Positions 2,249-55,626 of a DNA stretch of 64,000 nucleotides are shown here, in pieces. The position numbers were made by a program, and so were the translations under genes. This stretch comes from Giardia intestinalis. Taxonomy: Eukaryota. Numbering within the stretch: position 1 is the first letter of the stretch; each line of letters begins with the position of its first letter. The stretch lies in NCBI GenBank assembly GCA_000002435.2, contig CM018789.1. The stretch is one strand, 5' to 3'. The notes under the pieces were generated by a model. The model was not told the origin of the DNA. It worked only from the letters and a program-made list of their open reading frames with translations, and ran no database searches.

Positions 2249-5200
2249 ATGCTCTTAAATCTAAACGGGGACTCCTTTGGAGCCGACCGTGATGGCATCT
2301 GCGTGCACTTCGTCCATCAGATCAGGCGTAAGAATGCAGCCTATGCAATTCAGATACTCTCTCTTTCGGTTTCATTAATACTTAGTTTAGTAGTGGCCAT
2401 CTCTCAACAAACAGCTGTCCAGAGTCTACGCTTCCTTGTCGCAACAACATTGGTGATGGTCCTCCATGCTTGCTTTATTATTTTTACAGAGAATTACTAC
2501 GATGTGCGTTGCCAGTGCACCTCAGAATATCACTCTATTAGATCATTTACACTTATGGACAAGCCGTGCAGCTGTTTCACAACTACTGTACCTACTACAA
2601 TCAACATGCTTAACACATTTGGATGTCTATTTTCCCTCTGGTATCTCTTGGTCTTGAAGATATATGCTACAGGGGACTTCTTCGTCTCTGTCTATGCACT
2701 CCTTTCGAGCTACTTGATAGTTAGCTTTCCTGCAGTTGTGGGTCGGCAAGGCTACCTGCATCGCGGAGTCCGAACAGGCACATTTCTCATATTCATGTTT
2801 GCCCTGGTCAAAGTGTTGAATGGATCTACTCTTCTCATTTTACTGATTAGCATTTTTCTTATCACGATTGTGTCCTCGCGCTTTTCTTTTGAGCAGCTCA
2901 ATAGGCGCCCCTTGCAATTGATTATGGATAGCCAGGCCCTGCAGCTTCTCAGCAAGCAATTCATCGCAAAAACGTTTGCTAACCTCCTGCCCCACAGAGC
3001 TCTTGACTATATCTTCCAAGACAAAGACATAAAACTTCAGGTGCACGCCGATATGTACCTCCTGGTGATAAACATCGATATACCGTGCCTCCGAAAGAAG
3101 CTTCAGAAGTACATGTATGCCGCCACCAACACGCACACAAAGCCAGCTTCTAATAATATCAGTTTTTCCCCACTGACAGACTGTTACATAAATCACATTA
3201 TAGCCAGCGTTGTCAATCAGTTCATCTCCTGCATAGATACAATCCTCCTCGACGACTTCCCTCAGCTGACAAAGGTCTACTCGAATCTAAGCACCATAAA
3301 GGTCATTGCTGGCAACTCCTTCACACAATACAACAACAGGCAAAGCCCTCAGGGCGTTGAGTTTGGTGCTGAAAGTGTTGAGCCAAAGGATTATATGAAG
3401 ATTCTGTCTACCTTCGCTCTTCTGGTTAGCAGGTGTGCTGGGATATTTGCGCTCCGTGTAGACTCAGTTATTACTTTTGGAGACCTTGCCATTGGCTTCC
3501 TGGGATCACAACATATGTCATGTTATGAAGTTTTTGGCGCCCCAGTGGCTCTGGCTACTAAGCTACATGAGAAGATAGTTGCATATAATCAGGAAACAAT
3601 AAGGCAATCGGACTCCAGTGCTGCTTCAAACACACAATCTTATGAGAGTGGCCGTGACTGGAGTAGAAGCACGACCAGTACCAACTCAGATAGCTTTGTG
3701 TCTAGCAATCATAATGCTGTGGCGACCGACGACACTAGAGATAAGCCATACGGACATTCTTCTAAGACACCCTCCACTAAGTGCTCACTCTCTCTAAGCA
3801 AAGACAGCCTTCTCTCTAGTCATGATCATGTACCCCTCTATCTAGATGTTGCTCGCTCATCTCTGGACAATGAGCCTATCCATAGTGTTGTCAACGGTAT
3901 CAAGACTGGTGCTGGTCTGAAGGCCAATTTGTTTTCTGCCTCGAATATGTCTTTTTCACAAGCGTACCACTCTGTCGCAGAACCCACAGTCGAGTTCAAT
4001 GAACTGCCGTCAAACGTCTACTTCAGTGTTGTCAATATGCTTTCACGGCCGCTAGAGGAGTATGGGAATCGCGGGACAGAGGGCAGTGACACAATCACCA
4101 GTGATGTTATCTGCTCTGATGCATTCTCCGACGACCCTCAACCGCTAACGAACGCTGACCTAGAGTCTTCGATGAACTTCCGCCGCTTCCTTGCAGCTCG
4201 AAGAGGGAACACCCGCTCTGCAATCTACTCTAGGAGACGCTCCGTCATCAAGGCTCTGAATACCACAACCTCCCCCACTGATGATGCATTTCCGCAAAAG
4301 CTTATTTCACTCCACCAGAATCCTGACTCTAGTGTCTCAATGCACTCTAAACATAGACTTCGCTCACACTCCTCGACAACACCTCAGACTATGCCCCTTA
4401 ATAGCACTTTTTTCTACAGTTCTTCTTCAACAAATAGCATGCGGCTATGGAGCCCTAAGAATCTCAAGATAGACGCCATATACGTCAACAATGCCCTCAG
4501 CCAATTAACCTATCCTTACTCGACAAAGACGCCTAGTCCAAACTTTCAAGAAGTCTGTGACATGAAGGTGTCTGTCTTCCAGGTCTCTCTTGATGGGCTC
4601 TCCACCACCCCGCTCTCAATCGAGTATCCGTCTCGGATAACACATAAGTATCGGAATTTTTTATTTTATAAGCCTCCATTGTACATGTTTTATGACAGTA
4701 TTAAACTTACCCTGCCCGGCAGCTCTCTATCTTCTAATTCGTCTACCTCATCGTCGTCCCATCATTCTCTAGGGATTTTATCTTTCACGAATCACAACTA
4801 TAGTCTGATAGTGTGTTTATTGGCTTTTGGAATAAAGCATCGCATTCTTGTTTCAGAGCAAAACGCTGCCACAAAGGCCAACCTTGGAGAGCACCGCGAC
4901 ATCGACCTAAAAGAGTATCCCAGTCTATCCATTAACAAATCTATTGACACCTCTATAGGCGAAACATTGACCTCCTCGCAGACCACCCATGATACATTCT
5001 CACTCTCTGAATGTACAGATACAATGGTCTCCAACGCGTCGATGCAGAAGGGTGAGGGGTCTCCAAAATGCGAATGCTGGGATGCAGACTCTTCCTATCA
5101 ATTGCTTCTACAGACGGAGGATCTCATCCTGCGTGCCAAGGACCCCAAATCGTCCGGATACAGGGCCCTCCGCATGCTGGATTCCATCCCTATCTATAAC

Positions 5201-8200
5201 TCGAAGGCTATGCGCAAGTTATTTCGTCTTCTGAACACAGATCTTGAGCGTTTTGACAAGGTGATCACAAGTCTCAACAAGAGCCTCCTGCCCCAAGGTA
5301 ATGTGGTTGGAGATCTAGGCACCCTGGCAAATAATCAGTTCGACTTTGATTTCCTTGTGGCAAACGCAGGATTGCACAAAAAGAGGCAGCCTGATGCCGA
5401 GTGGCCGTCCTTCCTAAAAGAGGTTAAGATGGCCATGACTAAGCCAATGGACAATACATCAGAGTTCCACTCTTGCCGCGATCACGATAGCTCTCAGTTC
5501 AGCTCCTTCATATATCCTTTCTCAGGAGACCCTACACTTTTAACTACCTCTTCAGACAGCCATGGTACCCCTCTAACTACGCCCGTCTTTGAATCTGCAA
5601 ACCCAGAGAACCCAATATCTATGATAATGTCTTCCAACGTACTATCAGCACAGAATTTTTCTGATAGTCGCCTAACCAACTTGTATACACACAAGTCTCA
5701 GCTGTTACCAAGCAGTGTCATGGCACCCGAAAACCTGCCTATTCCTGGTCATCAAGCCTTGCTGAAGTCAAAGGTTAGCGACCCAAATCTAAAGACCCTT
5801 ATGACCATAGTTACTCGCAAAACAGAGAGCTTCGACAGCTCTAGCATGAACGTTGACAATGTACTCCCTGTACACTATTTCAAAAGGCGAGCGTATTCGT
5901 ATGTGGACTTTTCGGCAAACAAGCTAGATATACTGTACAGTAAGATAGGCAGGAGGAGCACTGCACGCTTAGGAACAGCCAATCATTCTCTTTCGGAGAA
6001 TAACCAGACGTCTGGAAAGCTAACTGATTGTCTGCGTAACCTCCAAATCAACGAATTGAAAGCCTTTTCGCAAAGTCTAGACAAGAGGCTGCGTAGCAAG
6101 AATGCTAGCCAGCATAAAGCTGATCCAGAATTTAAGCTCAGCAATGCGAACTCCAACTCTGCTAAGTTTTCTCTCCATAGTCATGCAGATGAAGAGGTGG
6201 AGATACCACTCTTGGCGCCCAAGTCTCCTAGCATTGAGTATTCCTCTACCAACGATAGCTGCACTGAATCTTTGCCAGAAACACCTAAATCCGCAGCTTC
6301 ACATCTGCCGATCCATAGGTCTGCGCTTTCGCACCTTTGCCAGTCTGTTTCTCCTTCAAGTGATATCGATAGCAAATCGGACAATACCTATGGCCAGAAC
6401 AAGGATATTTCCCCACCAAACTGCTCGTTCATTAAGGTGAGCAAGACCTTCATTGCAGCTTTACAGGAATCCGATGACTCTATGCACACGCTTTCACTAG
6501 TGAGGGAGAGCGATCAGTCTGCCTCCACCGATGATGCGTCAGATATTCAGTTTAATAAAACTAGCACCAGTCAGCTCAACAATCCTACCGATAGGGCATT
6601 CAGTAGAACATCTGGAGCTTCTGCATATCCATTGCCTGCAGGGCCCTCCACTTATCCAAAAACTGGAACATTGAATCCCCCCAACTTTAATGGATCAATG
6701 CCAACGGATGGCACCTCTAATCCGCCCACTACACTGGACAGCTATTCGTGTCTTTATAAACTTGAAATTGCTAGCGAAAATGATGAGACAGAAAATAGCG
6801 TCCAATCTGTTATACTGTTCAATGGATCGATGCACTTGCCAGACAACAGTGCACAGGATACTGCCCCTGCGTCTATGCTTTCCCAGTTTCGTGGAAATAA
6901 GAGCACTATGGGCGGGAATCCGCGACCCATGGTCTATCAAGCGCCGGATACCCTTGATGGAACTGTGTCGTCGCTATCAATAACTTCTTGCACAGATTCG
7001 CCTCGAAACAAGAGCAAGGCAGCTTCATATAAACCGTCATCTTGTACTGATGGGATGGATGACGATCCTCTCTTCAATCCGATTATCTGGCAGACCAACA
7101 GCTTCATTACCCTCGGAAAGCCAGCGACAGAGAAGCTGAGTACCAGTGCCACGGGACGATCAATTGAGACATCATTCCATGCAATAACCTCACACGCCCT
7201 TAAGGATATAGTAACGACTAGGCCGGCCCCAACACCAGCGTACACTCCCATCAATCTGTCAAACATTAATCAGTACAAGAGTATCGTATACACGACGTTT
7301 GGAGTGGCATTCGACCTTGTTGCACATCCATCTATCTACGCCTCGTCTATGCCCGGGGTTCGCCCCATCTGTTCTTCGTCTTCTTTGCGAGGCGGGCCCT
7401 CTAGCAATAGCAAGCACGACTATGAAGACGCGGCATTCAAAGCCAAAGCAGGATCTACAACAGAAGAAGACCAAGGCTCAAGTGACAGACAAGATGCCAA
7501 CTCTGATGCAGCGCAGGAATCGCTGCTTCAAACACGCAAGAGGCATAGTAAGTTTCTTCACTCCAACTGGCAATCTATGATTTATCTCAAGCGTTGTTCT
7601 CTGAATGCTGCTCTATCCTATATTCAACTATCGGATACCACTGAAGACGAAGAACTGTGCAAGACGTCAGAGCCTCAACTGCCGATTGAAACTGGTCGCC
7701 TAAGACCGCACACTTCAGCCCCAGAGGTTGACACTGAGATCCCAGAGGACTCATCTGCACGCAACTTCTTTGCGTGTGCGCGCTTGAAGAAGATTTATAC
7801 AGGGGAGTTAGAGCAGCCTCAAAGATCCATTAACAAGCCTCGTGGATGGCTACGCTATTCTACTTCTGCGTTCAAGTGGCCGCTCTTCAAACCTTTTCTC
7901 CGTCCACTAACCTGCAAGCCTATTCTTGAGGAGCATGTCTCCTTCCTAATAACTCTTACATCAGGCTACCTTCTGAGGATCTTCTTTGATATTCTTTTCT
8001 ACATTATATTTTTGTTCATGCTCTTTGGGGCACACGAAATAACCGACACCAATCAGCACATCTATCTGTTGTATATTTATGGAAGGCTTTTAACATTTAG
8101 GAATCCCTGCCAACGCAAGCAGCTTTCTACACGCCTAATTAGTGACACGTTTCAGGGATCATCATCCCTTGTGCCCTTTGCAATGAGGTGCAACTTCTCT

Positions 8201-10744
8201 TCTTCGAATTTAGTCCATGTCACAAAACTTGACAGCAATGGTCCCGGATTGGCATCTGTGTTACTCCAAAACCATGCCCAGTTGCATCATTTCCATGCGT
8301 TTATGAGTACCCTCTTGGGCCTACGCATTCTTCTAACGCTGTTTAGAGCACTTATAGCATCAAGGAAATCAAAGCTGGTTGTCTCCACGAAAACTGTGCT
8401 GTTCGGTAGAGTTATGAAAGAGCACCCTATTCTTTATCGGCTGGTGCAAATTACTAGGTGCGTTACCGTTGCTGTTGACGCCGTCTCAAGCTCCATGCTT
8501 ATTCTCACTAGGACCTTTGTCCTCTACGAGTACTTTCGTGGACTCCGAGACTTCACCACAAGTAACTTTGTCTTTTTCTTCTTTCTCATAATAACTACGT
8601 GGAGCAGTATTACCACTGAACTTTCTCCGCTGTGCAACACAAGCACAGGCGCAACGGTCTCGCTCTGCACCCACATATGGGCGAATACTATTTTTCTTCT
8701 TGATGCCACAAATTATTTTGCACCGGTTCTGCGCATATTCACAGAACTAAAATGTGTCTACTTGGCAATCAGCTACTACATTTCCAACATTCTGCAAAAG
8801 ATGGAGCCCACTTATAACGTTTCCAATTCTGCTAATATAGGTTCCTATTTGCAAACAGAGCACATTCGAGATACTGACTACCCCACACTGACCACCTGTG
8901 TCTCACTGCTACCCAATCTTAGGCTTGGAACGCCGCTAAAGGCTATTTGGAATGCCTACCACACTATACGACAAAATTTTCCCAAGCACAACTCGTCTCT
9001 TATAGCTTATCTATCCTGTGCCTTTTCAAAGGCTGGTTTAAGATCTTTGAGGCCTGTCACTTGCCAGACCTTGGACGATGCTCTTGTTCTAGCGCATGAA
9101 TCCCCATCAATACGCAACTTACATTCAGCCATTTATTTTCTATCTATCATTCTCTGTATTGTGCGTGTACTGTTTGGCCAACTGGATCTTTACCACGCGA
9201 TGCTTAACCACGTGGCTCAGGGCATTTCCGCCTACTCAGAGACTAAAAAGGCTATTGGTGTCATCGCATGCAATAAGCTGGAGCGCATATTCTTTGATTG
9301 CTATCTACATAACACCTTCAGTTCGTGCAATGTTCTGACCTACCAAGCAGAGCATCTTCACAGGGGTATCAACATGGACAGGAATCCTGCATATATGGGG
9401 AAGCAGCTCAAGTTAGTTGGAATGGTATCAGATTTAATTTATGACACAGAAGTACAACTTCCGTATGCTACTACAGAGTGTCTTGCTGGTGGACCCCTAA
9501 AACAAAAGGCAAGATTGTCCCTTATGGTGCTCCGTCTCCTGCAAGCCAGGATAGCCTCTATACTATCCAAAAGAGGCCGTGACCATGGTGCAGAGGCAGA
9601 GCATAAAGTTACCACTGTAACGGGGAAGACGACAAAGAGATCTGTGCGCTACTTGCGTTCTCCCTCTGTCCCCAGGCGTGCGGCAGTCTCAGCAACTCCG
9701 CCGGATAAGAAAATCACCTCTGTCACATCATTTGCAAACATGCATGATTGCTATGACATAGCCAAGTCTTTAGAGTCATTACTTAAAGAGAGGTCTGGCG
9801 ATAGTAGTGTACAATTCTCACGTGTGTACTCCGACGAGGAGCTGCATCAGATTGTCAGACGGTCCAAATTCTCCTCTTGGAGAAAGTACGCCCTATTTCG
9901 ATCCTGTTATAATTCGTGCAACTTCACCTTTAGATACTTGTATGACTTGGACACGCTTAGGCTAATACTAGCAAGCAAATTCTCTATGAAGATATGTGAT
10001 GAAAATATGTATCCTCTGAAGCCAGACACGGTATTTGAACCATACTACTCCAAAACGCTTGCCGGAGTCTTGCGGGCGCTACTTGTGTACGACGATAGAC
10101 GCTTCAATAGTATGCCCTCCCCATTCCTCTTCATTCCACCGTCTTACATGCTCTGCATTACCATCACAGAGCTCTATGATGCGATTGTTGAGGAGGGTGC
10201 GCACATTACCCTGCTTAAATATATGACTCTTCTCAAGATAATCAACGATACGGTAGTACGCGACTCCAACCTACTCTATGTGCAGAAAGACTTTAGCTTC
10301 TATATAATCTACAACACTCCACACTTGTCCCAGTTCTCCTCCATACACAATGTCAGTGACCCCATGGATTGCTATGTTGCAATCTTTTACTTGTGTAAGA
10401 TTGCCTATAGCATAAGAAAGTCTTTCCTCTGGGAGCTTGAGAAGCGCTTCTACACGCAGACCTTCAAGGTCTTCGGGTATATTAACTTGCATCATGAGCT
10501 GAACCTTTGCCTCGTCGGACGACGCCTCAACCGGCTCGACATTCTCGATACCACAGCTCTCCACGAGCGCGTCAGGAGCATGTCACTCATCTGTGGACCG
10601 TTTGACGTTGTCCTCCAGGATGAACTGTATAAGGTAGCTAAGGAGGTTTATAGAATGAGCGCTAGCACACGCCGCATGCTGAATATCGAAATAGACGAGA
10701 CTGGAATATATAAGAAGCTGCTAAATATCACTGAAGGTATTTAG
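2249..10744 (+). CDS. Giant (2831 aa) multipass membrane protein with class III nucleotidyl (adenylyl/guanylyl) cyclase-like domain(s); long S/T-rich linker
   Basis: 8.5-kb uninterrupted ORF with a true ATG. Hydrophobic helices cluster at aa ~40-210. Residues ~230-480 resemble a cyclase catalytic fold. 'QVHADMYLLVINIDIPC' resembles 'vtvlFaDIvGFT'. 'TIKVIAGNSF' resembles 'IKTIGDAYM', with the second metal Asp replaced by Asn. 'RVDSVITFGDLAIGFLG...YEVFGAPVALATKLHE' resembles 'GPVvAGVvG...ydvwGdtVNtAsRmes'. A ~1500-aa Ser/Thr-rich low-complexity stretch follows. A second hydrophobic cluster lies at aa ~1985-2250. A weak second cyclase-like stretch occurs near the C-terminus ('RLDILDTTALHERVRS'). 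Confidence 0.6.
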   Translation: MLLNLNGDSFGADRDGICVHFVHQIRRKNAAYAIQILSLSVSLILSLVVAISQQTAVQSLRFLVATTLVMVLHACFIIFTENYYDVRCQCTSEYHSIRSFTLMDKPCSCFTTTVPTTINMLNTFGCLFSLWYLLVLKIYATGDFFVSVYALLSSYLIVSFPAVVGRQGYLHRGVRTGTFLIFMFALVKVLNGSTLLILLISIFLITIVSSRFSFEQLNRRPLQLIMDSQALQLLSKQFIAKTFANLLPHRALDYIFQDKDIKLQVHADMYLLVINIDIPCLRKKLQKYMYAATNTHTKPASNNISFSPLTDCYINHIIASVVNQFISCIDTILLDDFPQLTKVYSNLSTIKVIAGNSFTQYNNRQSPQGVEFGAESVEPKDYMKILSTFALLVSRCAGIFALRVDSVITFGDLAIGFLGSQHMSCYEVFGAPVALATKLHEKIVAYNQETIRQSDSSAASNTQSYESGRDWSRSTTSTNSDSFVSSNHNAVATDDTRDKPYGHSSKTPSTKCSLSLSKDSLLSSHDHVPLYLDVARSSLDNEPIHSVVNGIKTGAGLKANLFSASNMSFSQAYHSVAEPTVEFNELPSNVYFSVVNMLSRPLEEYGNRGTEGSDTITSDVICSDAFSDDPQPLTNADLESSMNFRRFLAARRGNTRSAIYSRRRSVIKALNTTTSPTDDAFPQKLISLHQNPDSSVSMHSKHRLRSHSSTTPQTMPLNSTFFYSSSSTNSMRLWSPKNLKIDAIYVNNALSQLTYPYSTKTPSPNFQEVCDMKVSVFQVSLDGLSTTPLSIEYPSRITHKYRNFLFYKPPLYMFYDSIKLTLPGSSLSSNSSTSSSSHHSLGILSFTNHNYSLIVCLLAFGIKHRILVSEQNAATKANLGEHRDIDLKEYPSLSINKSIDTSIGETLTSSQTTHDTFSLSECTDTMVSNASMQKGEGSPKCECWDADSSYQLLLQTEDLILRAKDPKSSGYRALRMLDSIPIYNSKAMRKLFRLLNTDLERFDKVITSLNKSLLPQGNVVGDLGTLANNQFDFDFLVANAGLHKKRQPDAEWPSFLKEVKMAMTKPMDNTSEFHSCRDHDSSQFSSFIYPFSGDPTLLTTSSDSHGTPLTTPVFESANPENPISMIMSSNVLSAQNFSDSRLTNLYTHKSQLLPSSVMAPENLPIPGHQALLKSKVSDPNLKTLMTIVTRKTESFDSSSMNVDNVLPVHYFKRRAYSYVDFSANKLDILYSKIGRRSTARLGTANHSLSENNQTSGKLTDCLRNLQINELKAFSQSLDKRLRSKNASQHKADPEFKLSNANSNSAKFSLHSHADEEVEIPLLAPKSPSIEYSSTNDSCTESLPETPKSAASHLPIHRSALSHLCQSVSPSSDIDSKSDNTYGQNKDISPPNCSFIKVSKTFIAALQESDDSMHTLSLVRESDQSASTDDASDIQFNKTSTSQLNNPTDRAFSRTSGASAYPLPAGPSTYPKTGTLNPPNFNGSMPTDGTSNPPTTLDSYSCLYKLEIASENDETENSVQSVILFNGSMHLPDNSAQDTAPASMLSQFRGNKSTMGGNPRPMVYQAPDTLDGTVSSLSITSCTDSPRNKSKAASYKPSSCTDGMDDDPLFNPIIWQTNSFITLGKPATEKLSTSATGRSIETSFHAITSHALKDIVTTRPAPTPAYTPINLSNINQYKSIVYTTFGVAFDLVAHPSIYASSMPGVRPICSSSSLRGGPSSNSKHDYEDAAFKAKAGSTTEEDQGSSDRQDANSDAAQESLLQTRKRHSKFLHSNWQSMIYLKRCSLNAALSYIQLSDTTEDEELCKTSEPQLPIETGRLRPHTSAPEVDTEIPEDSSARNFFACARLKKIYTGELEQPQRSINKPRGWLRYSTSAFKWPLFKPFLRPLTCKPILEEHVSFLITLTSGYLLRIFFDILFYIIFLFMLFGAHEITDTNQHIYLLYIYGRLLTFRNPCQRKQLSTRLISDTFQGSSSLVPFAMRCNFSSSNLVHVTKLDSNGPGLASVLLQNHAQLHHFHAFMSTLLGLRILLTLFRALIASRKSKLVVSTKTVLFGRVMKEHPILYRLVQITRCVTVAVDAVSSSMLILTRTFVLYEYFRGLRDFTTSNFVFFFFLIITTWSSITTELSPLCNTSTGATVSLCTHIWANTIFLLDATNYFAPVLRIFTELKCVYLAISYYISNILQKMEPTYNVSNSANIGSYLQTEHIRDTDYPTLTTCVSLLPNLRLGTPLKAIWNAYHTIRQNFPKHNSSLIAYLSCAFSKAGLRSLRPVTCQTLDDALVLAHESPSIRNLHSAIYFLSIILCIVRVLFGQLDLYHAMLNHVAQGISAYSETKKAIGVIACNKLERIFFDCYLHNTFSSCNVLTYQAEHLHRGINMDRNPAYMGKQLKLVGMVSDLIYDTEVQLPYATTECLAGGPLKQKARLSLMVLRLLQARIASILSKRGRDHGAEAEHKVTTVTGKTTKRSVRYLRSPSVPRRAAVSATPPDKKITSVTSFANMHDCYDIAKSLESLLKERSGDSSVQFSRVYSDEELHQIVRRSKFSSWRKYALFRSCYNSCNFTFRYLYDLDTLRLILASKFSMKICDENMYPLKPDTVFEPYYSKTLAGVLRALLVYDDRRFNSMPSPFLFIPPSYMLCITITELYDAIVEEGAHITLLKYMTLLKIINDTVVRDSNLLYVQKDFSFYIIYNTPHLSQFSSIHNVSDPMDCYVAIFYLCKIAYSIRKSFLWELEKRFYTQTFKVFGYINLHHELNLCLVGRRLNRLDILDTTALHERVRSMSLICGPFDVVLQDELYKVAKEVYRMSASTRRMLNIEIDETGIYKKLLNITEGI

Positions 10745-10783: not shown

Positions 10784-11992
10784 ATGATACCCGGATGGCT
10801 TGTACAATTTAAAAAAATGGCCTCAAGAATAAAGACAGGGGAACAGTGGCTAGAGCTAGTGAACGATGGAAACGTTCCTCTTGTGAAGGCTCTTGCCAAA
10901 AAGTTTAGCGGGATCATGGATGAAAATGGCAACACTGCGTTGATCCTGGCGGTGAAGAAGGATCAGCTGAAGATGATCCCCATCTTGGCCCCCCTTGAGG
11001 CCCGGAAGAAGGATGTTGATGGCTACACGGCACTAATGCATGCAGTAAAGGCTGGCAATGCAAAAGCATGCGAGCTCCTAGCTTCCGCAGAGTACATGGA
11101 CACCCTTGAGGATGGATGCAATGCACTCATGCTCTCCCTAGAACGTGAGATGCTAGACGTGACGCAGATCCTTCTACCCTACTTTGACCTATCTCCGGAT
11201 TCTAACGGATTGACTCCCATTGACTACGCAATATACAACAAGAATTATGAGGGGATCAATCTTCTCCTAAGCAAGTACAATCCTGCCCCTGAAACGCTTC
11301 AGCAAAGCTTGAAAAGTGCACAGGATCAAGGCCACCAGGAGGCGATTACTATTCTCACTACGCACTGCTCTACATACCAGCCAGACCCGGCCTCGGAGGA
11401 GGTCTCTGACTCGAAATCTGATACTAGCAGCCTGAGAGGCTCCAAGAAGCTCAAAGTTAAATCTATAAAACCAGCAAAGCCGTCGAAGAAGGATAAAGCC
11501 AAGGGGTCCAATACCAGCTCTATGAATAACTCCATGATTGATTCTGCTGATAATCAGACTCCTGTGTGTGCCAACCTAGATGCGAATGAGCTAATACTTC
11601 CACTAGACAGCAATCTGGCAGCATCTAGCGAGTCTTTGTACGTAAATCGCATCCCCACTCCCACATATGAAGAGTGCTGTATGGACAGTGCCCCCATAGT
11701 TTTTGCTAGGATGCGCCAAGGCCTGGCTGAGGCTGCTACAACTCCCTCGGCGGCAAATGTCACCCAGCTCTATCAGCAAATTGCAGAGCTAGAGGCAGAG
11801 AATGCCAAACTCAGGGACGAAAATGCTAAGCTCAAAGCTGGGATGAATGCCAGCTTGGCCGGATCTGTCATTTCGTCATCGCGCCTTCAGGACCAAGTCG
11901 TTGAGTTGGTCAATAAACTGAGCCATACCAATGAGCGTTTGATTGAGACTATAGCCATGTCTGAGTCATTGACCAGCGTACCGGGTCTGTGA
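10784..11992 (+). CDS. Ankyrin-repeat protein with C-terminal coiled coil (Giardia 'protein 21.1'-type)
   Basis: ATG at 10784. Tandem ankyrin motifs: 'GNTALILAVKKDQLKMIPILAP', 'DGYTALMHAVKAGNAKACELLAS', 'DGCNALMLSLEREMLDVTQILLP', 'NGLTPIDYAIYNKNYEGINLLLS'. A heptad-like coiled coil lies at the C-terminus ('LYQQIAELEAENAKLRDENAKLKAG'). Confidence 0.7.
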   Translation: MIPGWLVQFKKMASRIKTGEQWLELVNDGNVPLVKALAKKFSGIMDENGNTALILAVKKDQLKMIPILAPLEARKKDVDGYTALMHAVKAGNAKACELLASAEYMDTLEDGCNALMLSLEREMLDVTQILLPYFDLSPDSNGLTPIDYAIYNKNYEGINLLLSKYNPAPETLQQSLKSAQDQGHQEAITILTTHCSTYQPDPASEEVSDSKSDTSSLRGSKKLKVKSIKPAKPSKKDKAKGSNTSSMNNSMIDSADNQTPVCANLDANELILPLDSNLAASSESLYVNRIPTPTYEECCMDSAPIVFARMRQGLAEAATTPSAANVTQLYQQIAELEAENAKLRDENAKLKAGMNASLAGSVISSSRLQDQVVELVNKLSHTNERLIETIAMSESLTSVPGL

Positions 11993-12015: not shown

Positions 12016-14931
12016 TCAATTGATTGTCGAAGGCACCTGCCATAGTAAATACTTCATCCCAGGCTCCACCATCCTTCTGCCGGTATGCTGGACCGGGCCC
12101 TTCCTGGCCTCGTTAGTAGGTAGTGTGTTTGTACGAAGGGCAGATAAGTCGCTATCTGACATGTCCATCAAGTCCTCTAAGGCAGTGCGTGACAGGATAA
12201 GTCGGTTTGGATCGCATCCTACTCCTACCTCATTAACGGTATTGCGCTGCGTGGCTGACGAAAATGCTCCTGGCCCTTCAATAACTGAAAAGCTTGAGGT
12301 CTGTAAGGTTGACGGAGCACGACGACCCCTAAGCTGCATGTATGAGGAACGGCTAACTGCAGTACCACGGCCTTTTGACGTATAGCCGATTAGTTTCAGT
12401 GTCTCAAAAGCAGAAGATATTGCAGCATCGTTTCTGCTCCCTTCTTCAAATCCCGGAAGTCGCGGTGTGAAAGGCTTGGCCTCAAGTGCTTGTGGCAAAG
12501 AGGTATTACTGCTAAGAAGATCCAAACTATTGCATAGACCCTGTGAACCTTTGCTGGAGCCTCGCGTAGACGGAGGACTGATACGTAAATACTCAGGTAC
12601 ATGAGGTGTATTCGGAGGCTGCATACATGACGTTTGGCGCCCACTAGTGATGGTATAACTAGGCGAGGAAGCTCCAGTTGAAGCTGTGAGGCTGGGCAAT
12701 TGTGGCTGGAGTTCTAGAGGAGGTAGGAACGGTTTTTCTCCAGACATTTCCACAAGATTAGTGTGCTCCTCATGTGATAGTGACACTGCTTCTTCTTTGA
12801 TAGCATTGTTAGGAAATGCTACGACTCGAAGTTGAGGAAGATTCAGTACCTGTATCTGCTCAACGCTCACTAAGGGAGCAGTAGAACTAGGCACCTCATC
12901 CTCTTGTGTCATGGTATCCGCAGGGACCGAAGTTCCTGATGCAGGATCTTGCAAGGGTGCTAGTGGCAACGTGTCGAGCTTCTCTATGATATCCTCTTTG
13001 GGGGGTAGAGCACTAGTGGTAGTCGGCTTTTTATTTTTACTTTTACGTAATTGTGCAAAGCGTTCAGTACCTAGACGAGATTGATTCTTTGATAGAGGAT
13101 TGTCGGAGATTTGAAGTGTCGATGGCAACGGATTCCGCCGCATAACATCATTAGAAAGAGAGCTAAGTGGCTCATTAGATAAAGCCACAGAGCAATCTCT
13201 TATAAAGTCTGACACATTCGATAAGAAGGCGCCAAAATTGTTGTACGCATTCTCTATGCCGTAAGTGCGCCGCATGTGATTCAGGCTATCAAGAAAAGCA
13301 TCATCCTTGTCATCATAGGAGGAGCCTTCCTCGCCTATCTTTGATTCTAGCTGTCGATTATCCTCAAGATCCTCTTCGAATACGGTGCCATCCTCTCCTG
13401 TTCTATAAATAGCAATATCATTAGACAAAGGTACTAAGGGCGCTAGTGCAAGAGCGTTGCTGATCACGTTATTAGAAAGCTCGTCAGAAAGACTATCTTT
13501 TGTGGGCTCCGCCTGGCTTTCGACTACTGTCTTACTAGGTCTGCTTTGTGACTCCAAACTGTCTTCTGAAATAACATTGCTAGCCAGTAGCTCATTTTTC
13601 ACTGTGTCTGTTACTAAATTCAAGTGTTGTTTTACACAAGCACTCGATACGTTATGCTGTTCAGTAGCTCGGCTGGTTATATCATCTCCATTAAAGCTAA
13701 GTTGCTTGGAAGGGTTAGGAACACAGCACTCCTCCGCCAAATGCTCCACTTGTTGCTTTCCCACTATTCTAGATGGTTCTTCTTGCTTGCTCAGGCGATT
13801 GAATGGTCTCCTTGCATTAATGTGTGGCACAGTGGGTGCTAATCTCTGCTCTGTCACTCCGATGACTAGCTCACTCCCAACACCAGAAATGAGAAGGCTA
13901 TTCTTGGTAGCGAGAGTGCTATCAGCGTCAGTTGTCATAGTCCAGCAATCCACAAGGTCTACATCTTTCAATACTCGTGCATTCCTCTCTGGCATGATCG
14001 TGGCGCCCTTACTGCTAGAGTGTAACATGTGTCTTTCTGGAAGAAGATATGACTGAACAATCAAGGGAGCAGAACAGGGCGCTGTTGTATCTCGTGACAA
14101 AGGCGTGATTCTACTTAGCGCAATCTTATTCTGAGAGTTGATCGCAAAGTTCTCTTCTATAGATCTATTGCATGATGTCAATAGGTCTCCAATGTGTAAA
14201 TCTGCTTCTGCGGGTCCATCAGTGGATGCTGAGCCAATGAAGGACTGGGTGGATAAGGCTGTTGCAGGTTCATTTGGATCTCCTGTGTTATCTGCTACTT
14301 GGCCAGCAAATGTCCCTAGCTCTACTTCAGGTCTGTCGTTGGGGTCTGGGTCACAGGTATCTACTTGAGAGAGCGGTGTATCTATATTGCCTAGCTCCAA
14401 TCTATCATAACATCTATTAGAGACTTGGAGTGGCGAATTATCGAAGTAATGCCTGCACTCCAGCCTTGACTCAGTGTGACCTTGGCATAATATAGCATTA
14501 GAGGAATAGCTAGTAGATAGTGACATGGCACCACCGAAGGGCTGTGATAAGGCTCTACCAGTTGAAACAAAGGATGGCTTCCCTTCAAATGCCCTTGAGT
14601 CTTGCTTTGTCTCGTGCCGAGTGTTACCGTAAGAAAAGGTCTCCTGATGTGATCCGCACGATGCAGCACGACTGAAAGGCACAACTGACTGAACAGGTGG
14701 TCTAGCATTCGGGGTGACTGGTATCTTCTTTTGAGTATGACGAGAAGCTATTAGAGATTGTAACTCCTGCTTAACCAGCTGTATATCGGAAAGGTATCTC
14801 CGTTTCCCATTGAGCTCAAGAACGGTGGGTAAAGGAGTTGACAATTGAGTTTCTGTAAGAGGGTAGGGAGCTCGCTTTTTAAAGGTCGCTGTTATCCCAT
14901 GTTCTTTAAATTGTGCCTCAGTAGTGTACAT
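12016..14931 (-). CDS. Hypothetical Ser/Thr-rich low-complexity protein (971 aa)
   Basis: Long ORF with a true ATG at 14931. No recognisable catalytic motifs. Only 10 bp separate it from the divergent gene at 14942. Confidence 0.55.
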   Translation of the reverse strand: MYTTEAQFKEHGITATFKKRAPYPLTETQLSTPLPTVLELNGKRRYLSDIQLVKQELQSLIASRHTQKKIPVTPNARPPVQSVVPFSRAASCGSHQETFSYGNTRHETKQDSRAFEGKPSFVSTGRALSQPFGGAMSLSTSYSSNAILCQGHTESRLECRHYFDNSPLQVSNRCYDRLELGNIDTPLSQVDTCDPDPNDRPEVELGTFAGQVADNTGDPNEPATALSTQSFIGSASTDGPAEADLHIGDLLTSCNRSIEENFAINSQNKIALSRITPLSRDTTAPCSAPLIVQSYLLPERHMLHSSSKGATIMPERNARVLKDVDLVDCWTMTTDADSTLATKNSLLISGVGSELVIGVTEQRLAPTVPHINARRPFNRLSKQEEPSRIVGKQQVEHLAEECCVPNPSKQLSFNGDDITSRATEQHNVSSACVKQHLNLVTDTVKNELLASNVISEDSLESQSRPSKTVVESQAEPTKDSLSDELSNNVISNALALAPLVPLSNDIAIYRTGEDGTVFEEDLEDNRQLESKIGEEGSSYDDKDDAFLDSLNHMRRTYGIENAYNNFGAFLSNVSDFIRDCSVALSNEPLSSLSNDVMRRNPLPSTLQISDNPLSKNQSRLGTERFAQLRKSKNKKPTTTSALPPKEDIIEKLDTLPLAPLQDPASGTSVPADTMTQEDEVPSSTAPLVSVEQIQVLNLPQLRVVAFPNNAIKEEAVSLSHEEHTNLVEMSGEKPFLPPLELQPQLPSLTASTGASSPSYTITSGRQTSCMQPPNTPHVPEYLRISPPSTRGSSKGSQGLCNSLDLLSSNTSLPQALEAKPFTPRLPGFEEGSRNDAAISSAFETLKLIGYTSKGRGTAVSRSSYMQLRGRRAPSTLQTSSFSVIEGPGAFSSATQRNTVNEVGVGCDPNRLILSRTALEDLMDMSDSDLSALRTNTLPTNEARKGPVQHTGRRMVEPGMKYLLWQVPSTIN

Positions 14932-15846: not shown

Positions 15847-18800
15847 CTATTTTCTTGCTGAGCTCGCAGATCTCACAGCAGAACTACTCCGACACCTATT
15901 TGCTTGCCTGGTGGTCGCAGAACCAGATAGACTAGAGCTTGAGGCCGGCCGTACATGGCTTCTACTGTATTGCTTAACGTATGAGCTCCTTCTCCCGTCT
16001 GTTTCACGGCAAGGTTGTTCCATCGTGGAGCTACACTTGGTGCTTGACAAAGCAGACAGCCGCATATCTTTCTCACTTTCCGTTACTCTATTGGACCTTG
16101 CCCTATATGCAGACTCCTTTCGCAGATTGTCCAGAGTAGCGTGGTTTTTGAGAAGAGGTTGCGAGCTCCTAGGTATGCTTTGATTGTTTGGATTTGCAAC
16201 CTCTTTTATTGTGGTGGTTGGGTTAGAAGAAGGAAGAGGCGAGGCATCTGCTAAGCTAGTAAATAGTACAGGGCTCTGATATATTGTATCCTTGTTCTGC
16301 TCCTTTGCTGTAACGGATTCTTTATCCAAAGATTGCCTCTGGCTGATGTGTGAGACATCCCGCGAAAAGGACATCGTGGACGAGCTTTGCAGCCCAGAAG
16401 TATTAGGGGTTGTAGTCTGATGCATGAGCGCGTTGAGTGCTCTATCATTTGCCTGCTTTTCAAAAGCTCGACGAGCCATAGCTGCACTAATGCTGACCGA
16501 AAGAGTTTTGTGATCACTAAGAAGTTGGTTATACCGAATCACTGAATTATCAGTAGTTTTAGGACGGGATGACTGTTTGTTTAGGGGAAGAGATTGCGAA
16601 ACTTGACGGTACCCATGTTGTGGAGATGAGGCTTCGTTGTTAGTATGCGCTGTCGAATGTGTTTCTGTTCTTTGCTCGTCCTCATCTGCATACAAAGGAA
16701 AGGCACCTGTGATGGACGGATAGTTGAACATGGTTGAAGTCTTGTTGACCGGACGAGTTTTGCTATGCCGTCGATGTGGAGCACCGTGGGCAGAAGCAGA
16801 TAGGGAACGCTGTGACTGTTGCGTCGTCACATCCAGAGCAGTCTTTTTGTTGTAGCTACCATAGAGAATGTCTCCCGTGCTTACTAGTGCAAGCTGTGTT
16901 CGTCCATCAGGAGCTCTGCGCTTCAAAAGGACAGTCTCTTTATAGTTAGAGGTACGCACAGCGCTGTTGGATAGATAATCAGGATCGGCTCCATCTATGT
17001 CTAGATCTTCCAATACCATATCTGCATTAACAGATGAGTGAAGCTGGGCGCTTGGATGTAACTCTAAAGATGCTTGAGGCTCCAGGCTATGAGCTATCAT
17101 CTGGGTAGTTGAATTGGACACCGGCGGACCGTACCGTGAGCTTGAACAAGAGGGTGAACCTGACCTGCATCTTTTTGTATTGTAGGTAGCACCAGAAGAC
17201 GCAGATGCCGAATTACTGCGTGTTTTACGTGCAGATCTTTTCTTGGATGCTTCCTGCTTCTTGTTGATGGATTCAGAAACCGTGGTTGTGTTGCGCTTAG
17301 AGAAGATATGATGCTGAAGGTCTATCTCTTGATAGTTTAGCCCGCCGATATACATTTCTAACGTGGCACTAGAACTAGGGAAAGCTGTGTTGCCAAGAAG
17401 CTGGATAAATTCATTTGGTTGAGAGCAGACATGCACATCTTTCCTGTGTAGCTCTATGGATGGAAGCGTGTGCATGCTACTGAATGTCCCGTTGACAGAT
17501 TGATTTCTGCTGATGCTTGGATCGTGAGAAGAAGAATTCACCAACTTATCATCAGACAACGTCCGTAGATCATAATGCGTACTGCTTTCGGCCGAGTTGA
17601 TGGTGGGGATGTCCAGTCCCCTGAGCATTTCTGCAATATTCGGAGATTCTGGCTGGTTTGCTTTTTCTACAGAAGACCGAGCCTCTCTGGAGTACAGCGG
17701 CATTGTGGCAATATCGGTCAGGTGACGTGTTATTGTGTCACGCTTATGATCTATAAAACGTGGGTTTGTGTGGGGCTGAATTAGTCGCCGGGCAGCCAAT
17801 ATGTCAGTTGTGTTTATGTCGTGTGTGGGCGCTAACATAAGGTTATCGTCACGAGAATGAAACGTGGCAGAACGTGATCGCTTTACGGAGGAGCTCTTTG
17901 GGGCGGTAAGTCTATCTAAAATTCTCGCAGAAGAGCTACTCTGTGAACGGCGACTTTGGGCTCTGTCAAGTACTTGCACCCCCGTCTGTGTTCCGAAAGA
18001 CAATGGATGATCAAGTGAGCTTCTTGCATCAGACACCTCAGTGACGCTTCTATAGCTCCCTGTCTCTGTGTAAGCATCCTTCAGCTCCGTAGTGCCAATT
18101 TTAGCATTGCGGGTGCGTCCAAAATAATTTGAACGTTTTATTGCAATAGAACTAGTATCATGGTGAGGCTTTTCGATATTTGCAGTGAGGGGAGTTGTAT
18201 TAATTGACTGCTCTGTTGTTGAGCGCGGTTGTATCCCAACTGTTCTACGGGAGTGCCGGGTTGAGGTTGATGCTGATGTTGCCCTTGCGTTGCCTTGCTG
18301 AGAGGGCACCAATCCTAGTGTAACGCTTGGTGCCTGAAGGCGCATAAGAGCCACATTGTACTTACTACGAGCTTGCGACTGGATGTAGCTACTTGCCATG
18401 CTCAGGGCCAGAGACGACGTAGGAAGGACCGCACTGACTGCCAGCGCCTTAGATGCATATGTTGACTGATAGGGCGTGAGGCTTACATCAGGCCGCAAAC
18501 TTGAACTTGTACTATTTGCTGCTGACCGTATACTATTATGCGTTAATCTGTTGGATTGTGTGCTAAATCCTCTTGCAATAGGCTTTTCACCGTGGATTGT
18601 CCTAAATACATGTTTAGAATGTGAAATATCTCCCGAACTCAAAGGACGCCTTCTTGCTGCGTTGAACCTAGTCCTGTCAGCTAAGCCATTGCTAGTAGCT
18701 ACTGTGTCTTGGTCTGTAAGTAGAGATGTGGGGTTCCTAAGCTGCTTACTAAAGGCTGGACCTTGATGGATTGCAGAGTATTTTTGTGTTACTATGGTAT

Positions 18801-20649
18801 GGGCTGCAGCTTTTGACTGAGATGCTGATAACACGTCACTAGATCTTGATGGACGTGCACTGTATGCACGTCTAGAGGATGAGCTGCGCGAAGACAAGGA
18901 TAGCGGCGGCCGTAAACCAGGTTTGTTGTCAACCAGAGACTGAACATTTAAAAGAGGCTTACTAGCAGACATACGGCGAGTCTTCTGGCTTGCCAGACTT
19001 TCTTCTGCACTTCGTGATCTAGAGGGAATCTGGTCAGGTTTAGTACCTGCATTTTGACTACGCATAGTTTCTGATTCATGGATTCTTTTCTGGACTAATG
19101 GTGGCTGTCGTAGTTCGTCTATAGTAAGCCTATTATCTCTTAGGTCCTTGACAGGGGTGGTGATGGTATCTGTTACGGTGTCCGTCTGTGTGCTAAGATC
19201 TGGTGTTAATAAGATATTGTGCTGAAATATGTGAGGGTCATCTGGATTTTGTGTTTTGTCAGCCGTTAAAAGGGCCTCAGCACCACTGCTTCCAGCTAAT
19301 CTTAGACTGCGCTGCCGAAGCTCTCGATCAGTAGCCTGGCTGCCATCGCGCTGTTGTGTGGCTACAGACGAAGCATTGGCTGAGCTAACCCGTCGCAAGG
19401 TATACTTCTTCTTGGACGCATGCGGATCAGAGTCTATAAAGAAGCCTATGGAGGACGAGGGAACTGGCTGCACAGGCCTCAAAGTTGATATGTATTGATC
19501 TTTTAATTCATGTGGGTTTGCAGTAAGCACCGGGATTCCATCTGGAAGTGTATCATCAGAGGAGGGAGGCGGTGGTAAGGATGGCGGCTCCGAAGCCTTC
19601 CACTTCTTTCGCATCGGCTTGAAGTGGGTAGGGTGCACAGCATAGATATGATTCAGATCATTATTAGACAACATATCTATGGTAGAGCTATAGATTGCGT
19701 TTGATTGCAGCTTGTGCAAAACTACATCCACCTCCTTCATAAATGCCGGATGGCTAGGCTTGGAATATTGTGGCTGTGAGGCACTCGTGCTGCGCTTGAT
19801 CTTCTGAGGATTGCGTCCTACAGCGGGGGCGTGCAGAGCTCGCTGTTGAGCTGCTACAAATGCCATGGCTTTACCGCTCGCTTGAACCTGAAAAGACCGA
19901 GATGATTGATGCTTTTCATCGCTGAGAATCTCGTTATCAAGAATTGCTGTGCCTTTGGCTTCGTTTGCTGGCTGCGTCGATTCACCTACACGATAACAAA
20001 TAGGAGATATCATGGCAGAAATAACTTGTTGATGATCAGTGTTGAGGCTTCCTTTTTCACTGTTAAGTGCGTGAGGAGTAGAAGTAAAATTTGGCGTGTG
20101 GTAGTCCCCAGCACTACTTACGCTACCTAAATTCTGATGAAGAGGATAAGTATTTAAACTAGACGAGGATGGACGAGAGCGATGAGCTGATGAAACTGTT
20201 GGTTTTACTAAGTCATCACTCGGTCCATTTATGTTCCTAGTGCCGTGCAAGACACTGTTTTCGTGTTGTGGAGCTAAAATTCCCTGGGGCTTAGAATGGT
20301 GTATAGTAGAGGATAGTCGCGACTTAGTACCGTTCAGAGTAAAGAGCATAGGTGTTTTTGGAGTCGTGTCTCCTCCCAGAGTTTCAGAGATCGGAGAGAA
20401 TTCTATCTGAAAACTCCGTGGCCTGACAGGGTTGAGGAGGAGTGTCTGCTGCATAGATCCACTGAACCGCTGATGACTTTGACCTTGTCCTTGCATAGCA
20501 GATGGGCTCACCCAGCCAGCTGATTGCTCTAACCGACTGATCCGTGCACTCTGGGGACCGCTCTGTTGCAGCGCAGATGAGCTCTGATCAACAACACTTG
20601 TCGCTGGAGCCTTTGTCGAGAGCACCCACTTGCAGGAACTACCTCGCAT
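15847..20649 (-). CDS. Hypothetical Ser/Thr-rich low-complexity protein (~1600 aa)
   Basis: 4.8-kb uninterrupted ORF. The track start at 20670 is a GTG codon; the first in-frame ATG gives about 20649. No recognisable domain. Confidence 0.55.
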   Translation of the reverse strand: MRGSSCKWVLSTKAPATSVVDQSSSALQQSGPQSARISRLEQSAGWVSPSAMQGQGQSHQRFSGSMQQTLLLNPVRPRSFQIEFSPISETLGGDTTPKTPMLFTLNGTKSRLSSTIHHSKPQGILAPQHENSVLHGTRNINGPSDDLVKPTVSSAHRSRPSSSSLNTYPLHQNLGSVSSAGDYHTPNFTSTPHALNSEKGSLNTDHQQVISAMISPICYRVGESTQPANEAKGTAILDNEILSDEKHQSSRSFQVQASGKAMAFVAAQQRALHAPAVGRNPQKIKRSTSASQPQYSKPSHPAFMKEVDVVLHKLQSNAIYSSTIDMLSNNDLNHIYAVHPTHFKPMRKKWKASEPPSLPPPPSSDDTLPDGIPVLTANPHELKDQYISTLRPVQPVPSSSIGFFIDSDPHASKKKYTLRRVSSANASSVATQQRDGSQATDRELRQRSLRLAGSSGAEALLTADKTQNPDDPHIFQHNILLTPDLSTQTDTVTDTITTPVKDLRDNRLTIDELRQPPLVQKRIHESETMRSQNAGTKPDQIPSRSRSAEESLASQKTRRMSASKPLLNVQSLVDNKPGLRPPLSLSSRSSSSRRAYSARPSRSSDVLSASQSKAAAHTIVTQKYSAIHQGPAFSKQLRNPTSLLTDQDTVATSNGLADRTRFNAARRRPLSSGDISHSKHVFRTIHGEKPIARGFSTQSNRLTHNSIRSAANSTSSSLRPDVSLTPYQSTYASKALAVSAVLPTSSLALSMASSYIQSQARSKYNVALMRLQAPSVTLGLVPSQQGNARATSASTSTRHSRRTVGIQPRSTTEQSINTTPLTANIEKPHHDTSSIAIKRSNYFGRTRNAKIGTTELKDAYTETGSYRSVTEVSDARSSLDHPLSFGTQTGVQVLDRAQSRRSQSSSSARILDRLTAPKSSSVKRSRSATFHSRDDNLMLAPTHDINTTDILAARRLIQPHTNPRFIDHKRDTITRHLTDIATMPLYSREARSSVEKANQPESPNIAEMLRGLDIPTINSAESSTHYDLRTLSDDKLVNSSSHDPSISRNQSVNGTFSSMHTLPSIELHRKDVHVCSQPNEFIQLLGNTAFPSSSATLEMYIGGLNYQEIDLQHHIFSKRNTTTVSESINKKQEASKKRSARKTRSNSASASSGATYNTKRCRSGSPSCSSSRYGPPVSNSTTQMIAHSLEPQASLELHPSAQLHSSVNADMVLEDLDIDGADPDYLSNSAVRTSNYKETVLLKRRAPDGRTQLALVSTGDILYGSYNKKTALDVTTQQSQRSLSASAHGAPHRRHSKTRPVNKTSTMFNYPSITGAFPLYADEDEQRTETHSTAHTNNEASSPQHGYRQVSQSLPLNKQSSRPKTTDNSVIRYNQLLSDHKTLSVSISAAMARRAFEKQANDRALNALMHQTTTPNTSGLQSSSTMSFSRDVSHISQRQSLDKESVTAKEQNKDTIYQSPVLFTSLADASPLPSSNPTTTIKEVANPNNQSIPRSSQPLLKNHATLDNLRKESAYRARSNRVTESEKDMRLSALSSTKCSSTMEQPCRETDGRRSSYVKQYSRSHVRPASSSSLSGSATTRQANRCRSSSAVRSASSARK

Positions 20650-20662
20650 ATGCAGCCAGGCA

Positions 20663-52897: not shown

Positions 52898-53201
52898 CTC
52901 CTCGAGCTGCCCGGCATCCGAACTTCCTTGTGACTCGACATACGCGGCTCCAAACCTCCGGCGGCGGAAGGAATTCTGAGCCTGGGCTCCTGATGGGTAG
53001 CAGGAAGCGTACCTAGACGGTTCGGGATGCGCTAGGGAGTCAAGAGCAGTCGGGGACCTGGACCGGGGGACTAGCGCGGGGTGGAGCGGAACGGGCCGGC
53101 GCGCCACGGCTGGCGGGGCGGGGTGGCGAGGATGGAAGCGCGGGCTGACGTGGTCGACGCGGTGGCCGGGGGGAAGCCGGACGCGCGCAGGGGGCATTGG
53201 G

Positions 53202-53205
53202 AAAA
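53202..53205 (-). terminator. Pol III oligo-T terminator of tRNA-Tyr
   Basis: On the minus strand, TTTT follows the discriminator base directly (plus strand 'gaaaat'). Confidence 0.5.
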
Positions 53206-53289: not shown

Positions 53290-53355
53290 CCTGAGCGCCT
53301 TGACAGCGCCAAATAAACACAAGAGGGCTTGATCTGCAGGCTTGGTGACCCAAAA

Positions 53356-55333: not shown

Positions 55334-55626
55334 TCTCATTAATTAATGCCTCATCAAAAATGACCCACAAAACTTTTAATCACCGAAGCATTTAAAATTA
55401 GCGCTGTAAGGCAACCTTAGAAGTGCGTCTTCTGGGAAATTCCCTGGGCGTCGGGCAGAAAGTGCCGGTCCTCTGGATTCCGGGGAGTGTCTGGTGCCGA
55501 TCGGACACTCCCTAGCCGCCACACTGACAGTTATGGTTGCAGGACAAGCTTAGCGAGTCCGAACTCGACAGGGATACTCTACAGCGTTCCTTTATTCAAT
55601 CATTGACGGGCGTGTCGCTATCACGC

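Follow-up and report, generated by a model that had tools for sequence, protein, structure and literature searches.

What kind of membrane protein is encoded by the open reading frame (ORF) at positions 2249-10744 of a 64,000-nucleotide stretch of Giardia intestinalis DNA (contig CM018789.1; the window, referring here to the whole of this stretch), and how is it related to the class III nucleotidyl cyclases whose architecture it seems to copy? According to the ORF list and its translation, the frame runs on the plus strand from ATG to stop without interruption, over 2831 codons plus the stop, and all features of the gene described below lie on the same strand. The translated product of 2831 amino acids (aa) is 100% identical to XP_001707899.1 / KAE8301377.1, which is GL50803_87422 of G. 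intestinalis WB (assemblage A), a 'hypothetical protein' in the database annotation. An initial annotation, made from the letters alone, had proposed both this ORF, which the exact database match bears out, and an adenylyl-cyclase-like topology for its product. With a probability of roughly 0.6, GL50803_87422 is a tandem-domain pseudo-cyclase, i.e., a relative of the class III nucleotidyl cyclases that is very divergent and specific to Giardia.

The gene is conserved throughout the genus. GL50803_87422 is kept in all assemblages, and a word-indexed search of 5.8 billion proteins retrieved orthologues with 60-98% identity, all from G. intestinalis. The same type of search with the alignment of the N-terminal domain was uninformative, as it returned no match and missed even the family of the query itself. 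An exhaustive HMMER search of 1.84 billion representatives with a profile of aa 1880-2831 matched three proteins, namely a Giardia orthologue (P0005), a 230-aa fragment aligned with profile positions 1-44, and, as the one match from a different species, GMRT_14045 of G. muris (2309 aa), which is named 'Transmembrane protein' and carries no Pfam domain. The two proteins are collinear. BLASTP aligned their N-terminal domains with 30% identity (E 4e-30) and aa 2554-2827 with G. muris aa 2042-2306 with 28% identity (E 4e-31; E 2e-26 for the profile match in the exhaustive search), and two blocks of the intervening linker are shared as well. Downstream of the G. muris gene lie a same-strand ankyrin/TSC22-like gene and then a long ORF on the opposite strand, as in the window. 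This collinearity, together with the same downstream neighbours, identifies GL50803_87422 and GMRT_14045 as orthologues. The orthologues of the other assemblages and the collinear G. muris orthologue exclude a chance ORF, and at the sensitivity of HMMER the family appears to be confined to Giardia.

An N-terminal domain similar to class III cyclases

The region most similar to cyclases spans aa 268-445 (3050-3583) and includes a variable loop at aa 285-307. For comparison, 120 genuine proteins of PF00211, the Pfam family of the class III cyclase homology domain, were collected and used to build alignments and hidden Markov models (HMMs). With the HMMER filters switched off, the best match of our own cyclase HMM in all 2831 aa was found at aa 394-444, with 4.5 bits only, where 'LRVDSVITFGDLAIGFLGSQHMSCYEVFGAPVALATKL' is placed on the consensus 'lRiGi.sGsvvaGviGkkkfkYDlwGdtvniAsrl'; the best match in the G. 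muris protein falls in the homologous region.

Profile-profile comparison with hhalign, which was improved by adding the G. muris sequence, aligned the N-terminal domain with 79 real cyclase domains over 114-128 columns with a score of 27.1 and a P value of 0.002. One hundred column shuffles gave a mean of 13.9 with a standard deviation (sd) of 2.6 and a maximum of 20.8, and the reversed alignment scored 13.5. When the element preceding the domain was included and the loop at aa 285-307 was left out, the alignment ran end to end over 155 columns with a score of 29.7, a P value of 7.5e-4, and a probability of 25%, compared with a maximum of 21.3 among 100 shuffles. The scores of the N-terminal domain therefore stand 5-6 sd over the shuffles. 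An early hhalign run had offered 'ILLDDFPQLT' (aa 332-341) as the first cyclase strand; this candidate was rejected, its two aspartates being H-E in G. muris and the full-length alignment placing the stretch at the end of helix alpha2.

The element in front of the domain is a juxtamembrane helix at aa 234-262 (2948-3034), aligned by hhalign with the pre-core element of 42 real cyclases. It carries a cyclase-transducer-like motif, 'FANLLPHRALDYIF', at aa 243-256, in which N245, L246, L247, P248, and H249 are invariant, G. muris included. The motif pairs with 'LLLNILPQAIAERLK' of real cyclases, many of which have a conserved 'LLLNILPxxIAxRLK' element just upstream of the catalytic core, a position for which the concept of a cyclase transducer element has been described (PMC5995499). 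The spacing to the first metal-binding aspartate also matches, with 29 residues from P248 to D277 and, by count, 27 in a bacterial example (P0093). No equivalent of this element was seen upstream of the C-terminal domain.

A further hint comes from UniRef, where the assemblage-B orthologue C6LRA3 and a 1685-aa fragment of the N-terminal part, V6U1U3, are named 'Guanylate cyclase domain-containing protein'. This name presumably stems from an automatic domain profile and, since the rule behind it was not seen, it was counted as a hint alone. The sequence identity of GL50803_87422 to any cyclase stays below 20%. An AlphaFold model of the N-terminal domain was poor (predicted local distance difference test score, pLDDT, of 42), with an order of secondary structure elements compatible with a cyclase. 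Judged from the profile comparison, the N-terminal domain is probably a genuine cyclase homology domain that has diverged strongly, at a level of confidence below that usual for HHpred.

Membrane clusters and the fold of the C-terminal domain

Kyte-Doolittle hydropathy, by which the transmembrane segments were called, revealed two hydrophobic clusters. The first, at aa 28-217 (2330-2899), contains about six helices with peaks at aa 33, 62, 118, 146, 173, and 189, and six matching peaks are found in G. muris. The second, at aa 1897-2320 (7937-9208), contains five to six helices with peaks at aa 1908, 2018, 2068, 2107, 2133-2178, and 2294, of which the fifth is weak; G. muris displays six comparable segments here, and the fourth shares its '(E)(L/I)SP' end.

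The second cluster is followed by the most conserved part of the protein, a C-terminal domain at aa 2554-2827 (9908-10729) with 65-78% invariant columns. A template-free AlphaFold2 model of this domain, computed from an alignment of four Giardia sequences, predicts a core of the cyclase/GGDEF type at aa 2633-2806 (10145-10666), with the order beta, alpha, alpha, beta, beta, alpha, beta, alpha, beta, alpha. The confidence of the model is low, with a mean pLDDT of 45 and a predicted template modelling score (pTM) of 0.48, and with pLDDT values of 51-73 for model residues 101-220. Nearly all structures retrieved with it have either a class III cyclase fold or a GGDEF fold, and the top eight Foldseek matches are adenylyl cyclases (E 1.3e-4 to 1.1e-3, target template modelling score about 0.5).

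The presence of GGDEF folds among these matches raises the alternative that the C-terminal domain belongs to the GGDEF type or to another palm type, so that the protein would be no true analogue of a tandem cyclase. This is very improbable. Besides the cyclases at the head of the Foldseek list, the alignments with cyclase domains are the longer ones, covering 143-166 residues against 112-139 for most GGDEF matches at similar Z scores, and the GG[DE]EF motif is absent from the beta2-beta3 hairpin (aa 2675-2688, 'LLYVQKDFSFYIIY'; aligned G. muris segment 'LLVRNGLSSRLLY'), with 'QKDFSF' standing at the turn. The position of the domain, right after the second transmembrane cluster and preceded in the same protein by a first domain with cyclase motifs, is moreover that found in membrane adenylyl cyclases. 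GL50803_87422 is likewise set apart from the GGDEF diguanylate cyclases by its eukaryotic membrane context.

The model thus most likely points to a cyclase fold, with a decayed second cyclase domain as the likeliest origin. Confidence is lower here than for the N-terminal domain because the assignment rests on one low-confidence model. The initial annotation had asked whether the C-terminal region, from which it quoted 'KVFGYINLHH...ERVRS' (present at aa 2740-2777), is a degenerate second cyclase domain; the predicted fold agrees with this idea, and the sequence itself gave no signal for it.

Taken from the N-terminus, the predicted layout comprises about six transmembrane helices, a transducer helix, a first cyclase-homology-like domain, a linker of 1450 aa at the position of C1b, again about six transmembrane helices, and a second domain of cyclase fold. 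Two clusters of about six helices, with a cyclase-type domain after each in one polypeptide, is the arrangement of the mammalian-type membrane adenylyl cyclases (class IIIa, 6TM-C1-6TM-C2, TM denoting transmembrane helices; AC1-AC9 and Dictyostelium ACA), with which GL50803_87422 also shares a helical 'LLxxxLP' transducer element upstream of the first domain. The outline proposed initially, two transmembrane clusters and two cyclase-like domains, is accordingly supported at moderate strength, albeit by tests other than those suggested with it.

In class IIIa cyclases, C1 pairs with C2 head to tail, and of the two sites of this pseudo-dimer one is active and the other degenerate; C1 provides two aspartates and C2 provides lysine, aspartate, asparagine, and arginine. 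By analogy, both domains of GL50803_87422 would face the cytosol and pack head to tail within one chain, like C1 and C2. In other respects, GL50803_87422 differs from these enzymes. It lacks matches to PF00211, AC_N, and DUF1053, its linker measures about 1450 aa where theirs has a few hundred, its first domain is without the second metal-binding aspartate, and its second domain lacks the lysine, aspartate, asparagine, and arginine of C2.

Catalytic residues and the case for a pseudo-cyclase

The catalytic columns of the N-terminal domain were read in the register of the 155-column hhalign alignment across the Giardia sequences. The first metal-binding aspartate (cyclase 'VLFAD', Giardia 'LVINID') is retained as D277 in all species, within 'RVD' in G. 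muris. It lies in 'NIDIP' (aa 275-279), which the initial annotation had correctly taken for the context of this residue. The purine-specifying lysine and the second metal-binding aspartate both belong to the cyclase segment 'leKIKtIGD', aligned with 'LTKVYSNLS' in Giardia. The former is Y344 in G. intestinalis, with 'KIKS' at the motif in G. muris, and the latter is S348 in WB (3290-3292), replaced by D in assemblages B and E and by T in G. muris; the P0005 orthologue also has an aspartate at column 348. That the second aspartate is changed had been claimed before, and the column is indeed not conserved, but the change lies at S348, in 'KVYSNLS' against 'KIKTIGD'. The string named for it, 'IKVIAGNSF' (aa 350-358), is off by a few residues, as it aligns with strand beta3. 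The aspartate at column 348 in assemblage B may be the reason why UniRef names the B orthologue, and not the WB protein, a guanylate cyclase domain protein.

Further along, the purine-specifying acid (cyclase 'YDlWG', Giardia 'YEVFG') is E427, replaced by D in G. muris. In the segment where cyclases read 'VNtAsRM' and Giardia 'VALATKL', the transition-state asparagine is A434, or V in G. muris, and the transition-state arginine is K438, or R in P0005 and G. muris. A lysine at the arginine column is shared with the C1 domain of AC8, which reads 'DIANKLES', and the first metal-binding aspartate is another feature kept in common with class IIIa C1 domains. The canonical residues surviving in the N-terminal domain are D277, the acidic E427, and the Lys/Arg at K438 only. 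The two metal-binding aspartates are not both kept, the second column of the N-terminal domain being S, D, or T and the C-terminal domain, in a register set by secondary structure, having no conserved acidic residue at either position. Nor is the pair of asparagine and arginine in 'VNxAxR' kept in the N-terminal domain ('VALATK') or conserved in the C-terminal domain, where a comparison of G. intestinalis with G. muris reveals no conserved canonical cyclase residue. The earlier statement that most catalytic residues are lost is therefore in agreement with the alignment.

One metal-binding aspartate and the asparagine are missing from the first domain and the second domain is without canonical residues, hence the designation as a pseudo-cyclase. 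In a C1-C2-like arrangement, the site using the N-terminal aspartates would lack the second of these and would receive no lysine, aspartate, asparagine, or arginine from the C-terminal domain, while the opposite site would lack both aspartates. Judged by these columns, synthesis of cyclic AMP (cAMP) or cyclic GMP by the standard two-metal mechanism is most likely impossible for GL50803_87422. Binding of a nucleotide or of some other ligand may still occur in the degenerate pocket at the interface. In such a scheme, pocket and linker would have a role in binding or regulation, and the membrane domains one in anchoring or sensing.

A number of observations weigh against the reading of GL50803_87422 as a degenerate tandem cyclase. 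No match to PF00211 was obtained at E<=10 with the full-length protein, with the two sub-domains of any orthologue, or with the G. muris protein. A HMMER run of this family over the protein and its sub-domains was the check proposed at the outset, and its outcome, taken alone, would have been a reason to abandon the idea. Searches with HMMER profiles of the two domains likewise retrieved no cyclase at E<=10 among the PDB sequences, the sole match being an irrelevant light-harvesting protein (E 1.9), whereas a cyclase consensus easily retrieved 67 PDB sequences as a control. The hhalign probabilities reach 13-25% only. The C-terminal domain displayed no sequence similarity to cyclases, its hhalign score of 9 lying under the shuffle mean, and no signal of an internal duplication was obtained when it was compared with the N-terminal domain. 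Both AlphaFold models are of low confidence (mean pLDDT 42 and 45, alignments of four to five sequences), and the N-terminal model retrieves no cyclases. Helix count and topology are based on hydropathy alone. Finally, assemblages B and E carry an aspartate at the second metal column, and the loss of activity is deduced from low-confidence alignments. Pfam scans of the whole protein, of the sub-domains of all orthologues, and of G. muris gave noise only (IncF, DUF7356, EAV_GS, and TAXi_C; E 0.04-0.24), and neither AC_N nor DUF1053 appeared in the scan of GL50803_87422.

These failures would favour the view that there is no kinship with cyclases at all. GL50803_87422 would then be a lineage-specific multi-pass membrane protein, the N-terminal motif a coincidence, and the C-terminal domain a generic alpha/beta sandwich produced by AlphaFold from a shallow alignment. 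Every conventional threshold of significance was indeed missed, with profile probabilities of at most 25% and mean pLDDT values of 42-45, and no homologues outside Giardia are at hand to deepen the alignments. Such a view is nevertheless unlikely. Evidence of two independent kinds, each concerning a different domain, converges on one family and on an architecture known for that family, and the N-terminal alignment is collinear over 155 columns, includes a correctly spaced motif in front of the domain, and exceeds its shuffles by 5-6 sd.

The opposite alternative, a third active Giardia cyclase, has to be weighed against the catalytic columns. Such an enzyme would work with a non-canonical catalytic set, for example through intermolecular pairing of N-terminal domains with D277, the aspartate at column 348 (in B and E), E427, and K/R438. 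D277, the acid at the purine-specifying column, and a Lys/Arg at the arginine column are conserved as far as G. muris, which moreover keeps 'KIKS' at the lysine motif, and assemblages B and E have an aspartate at the second metal column. This possibility is distinctly unlikely, if less so for assemblages B and E. With S in WB and T in G. muris, the second metal column is not conserved as an aspartate; the asparagine is A or V in every species; the C-terminal domain contributes no canonical residue; and PF00211 does not recognize the protein. Published HMM inventories, in addition, give only GL50803_14367, GL50803_16599, and a weak GL50803_16492 (PMC5617230). Returning to the pseudo-cyclase reading, GL50803_87422 is probably best filed as a divergent, non-catalytic member of the cyclase superfamily with tandem membrane-cyclase architecture. 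It is not filed as a cyclase enzyme because it fails the tests on family HMM scores and on catalytic residues.

Other cyclase relatives with incomplete sites offer partial parallels. The Pseudomonas aeruginosa 'class III adenylyl cyclase-like ATP-binding protein' (PDB 6yii) is a soluble bacterial protein, in contrast to the tandem membrane protein described here, whose potential sites both appear degenerate. Heterodimeric cyclases with a non-catalytic face, such as the alpha/beta soluble guanylate cyclase or the C1-C2 pair with its forskolin site, differ in the same respect, as they keep one competent site.

In Giardia itself, gNC1 is said, in the title of a 2017 report by Saraullo et al., to have a single cyclase homology domain, and a tandem-domain relative would thus differ in kind from the known enzymes of this organism. 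Two cyclases have been described, AC1/gNC1 (GL50803_14367) and AC2/gNC2 (GL50803_16599) (PMC10636121, PMC10935199), to which a profile-HMM survey adds the weak candidate GL50803_16492 (PMC5617230). AC1 and AC2 are class III membrane proteins and constitute the known cAMP-producing machinery (PMC10636121, PMC5617230). GL50803_87422 resembles them as a membrane protein of the same organism read as a member of the class III family. By the published descriptions, AC1 and AC2 differ from it in giving strong profile-HMM matches, while GL50803_87422 has two degenerate domains that Pfam does not recognize. It is absent from the published inventories of Giardia cyclases, and full-text searches for its identifier gave nothing relevant. 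The cAMP system of Giardia has been described as minimal, with two cyclases, one phosphodiesterase, and one protein kinase A, and AC2-dependent cAMP controls encystation (PMC10636121). Giardia has also been described as lacking G protein-coupled receptors as well as heterotrimeric G proteins.

Against this background, a third protein of the cyclase superfamily, conserved and specific to the genus, would extend the Giardia cAMP system with a tandem layout otherwise typical of animal enzymes, in which the active site has decayed. If inactive, GL50803_87422 would exemplify a membrane pseudo-cyclase and be a candidate for a regulator or a scaffold; if active, the list of cAMP sources, and with it that of drug targets, would be incomplete. 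A more specific role is conceivable, though speculative and quite improbable: GL50803_87422 could be a dedicated pseudo-cyclase partner that pairs with the single cyclase domains of AC1 and/or AC2, or a sensor of membrane state acting through its membrane domains and a phosphorylated linker, and could in this way set the cAMP output that triggers encystation. This would represent a previously unseen regulatory layer in an organism without G protein-coupled receptors or heterotrimeric G proteins. More generally, family HMMs miss proteins of this kind in fast-evolving parasites.

The Ser/Thr-rich linker and the neighbouring genes

The two halves of the protein are joined by a Ser/Thr-rich linker of about 1450 aa (aa 446-1895, 3584-7933), which matches no Pfam domain and in which S, T, P, N, Q, and G together make up 35-56% of the residues. 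Conservation along it is uneven, and in parts (several 100-aa windows) 60-75% of the columns are invariant between assemblages. An island at aa 584-872 (3998-4864) aligns by BLASTP with G. muris aa 495-748 (E 5e-12) and is 58-75% invariant among the assemblages, and a block at aa 1677-1778 (7277-7582) is conserved with G. muris as well. The initial annotation had described this region as a disordered insert of about 1500 aa. The description as disordered holds only in part, given the blocks conserved with G. muris and the invariant stretches between assemblages.

Examples of the conserved sequences are 'VYFSVVNMLSRPLEEYGNRGTEGSDTITSDV' and 'PPLYMFY...LSFTNHNYSLIVCLLAFGIKHRIL', neither of which matches Pfam. 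The two blocks (aa 584-872 and aa 1677-1778) may constitute small modules, either folded or involved in binding. In the mechanism outlined above, the long linker, which is probably phosphorylated and carries conserved islands, would be a plausible regulatory or docking region. A separate stretch at aa 984-1008 (5198-5272), 'NSKAMRKLFRLLNTDLERFDKVITS', gave a weak, repeatable match to the cyclase helix alpha2 ('elvrlLnelfsrFDela') with a negative HMM score; with background-level scores in both the HMM and hhalign scans, it is probably a coincidence.

Directly downstream of GL50803_87422, at 10784-11992 (+), lies an ankyrin-repeat gene (Protein 21.1 / 'Ankyrin repeat protein 3'), which exists in the databases in two forms of 402 aa (first ATG) and 391 aa (newer annotation). 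Its product has a C-terminal coiled-coil with weak matches to TSC22, DivIC, and MAD, and the neighbour of the G. muris gene displays the same pattern of Ank plus TSC22. The window as a whole consists of tightly packed, long, intron-free ORFs with about 47% G+C. Its gene products are eukaryotic and include copine as well as ankyrin proteins, a DNA polymerase of family B that has a pol-delta zinc finger, cathepsin-C-like proteases, kinase-plus-ankyrin proteins (NEK-type), a tubulin-family protein, and L7Ae.

Several other long ORFs carry no Pfam domain, namely those at 12016-14931 (-, 971 aa), 15847-20670 (-, 1607 aa), and 50792-53353 (-, 853 aa), and the 932-aa product of 31971-34769 (-) has a sub-threshold Nup88-like match alone (E 7e-4). 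The 480-aa tubulin-family protein at 53928-55370 (-) contains a Tubulin GTPase domain (E 8.5e-36) and no tubulin C-terminal domain at E<=0.001, which suggests a divergent class of tubulin. Two genes with the protein-kinase-plus-ankyrin architecture of the Giardia NEK-like proteins, at 34853-36526 (+) and 39747-42224 (-), are found in one region. The cathepsin-C-like paralogues at 26686-28407 (-) and 36537-38057 (+), each combining an exclusion domain with a papain-family peptidase, are located on opposite strands with 8 kb between them.

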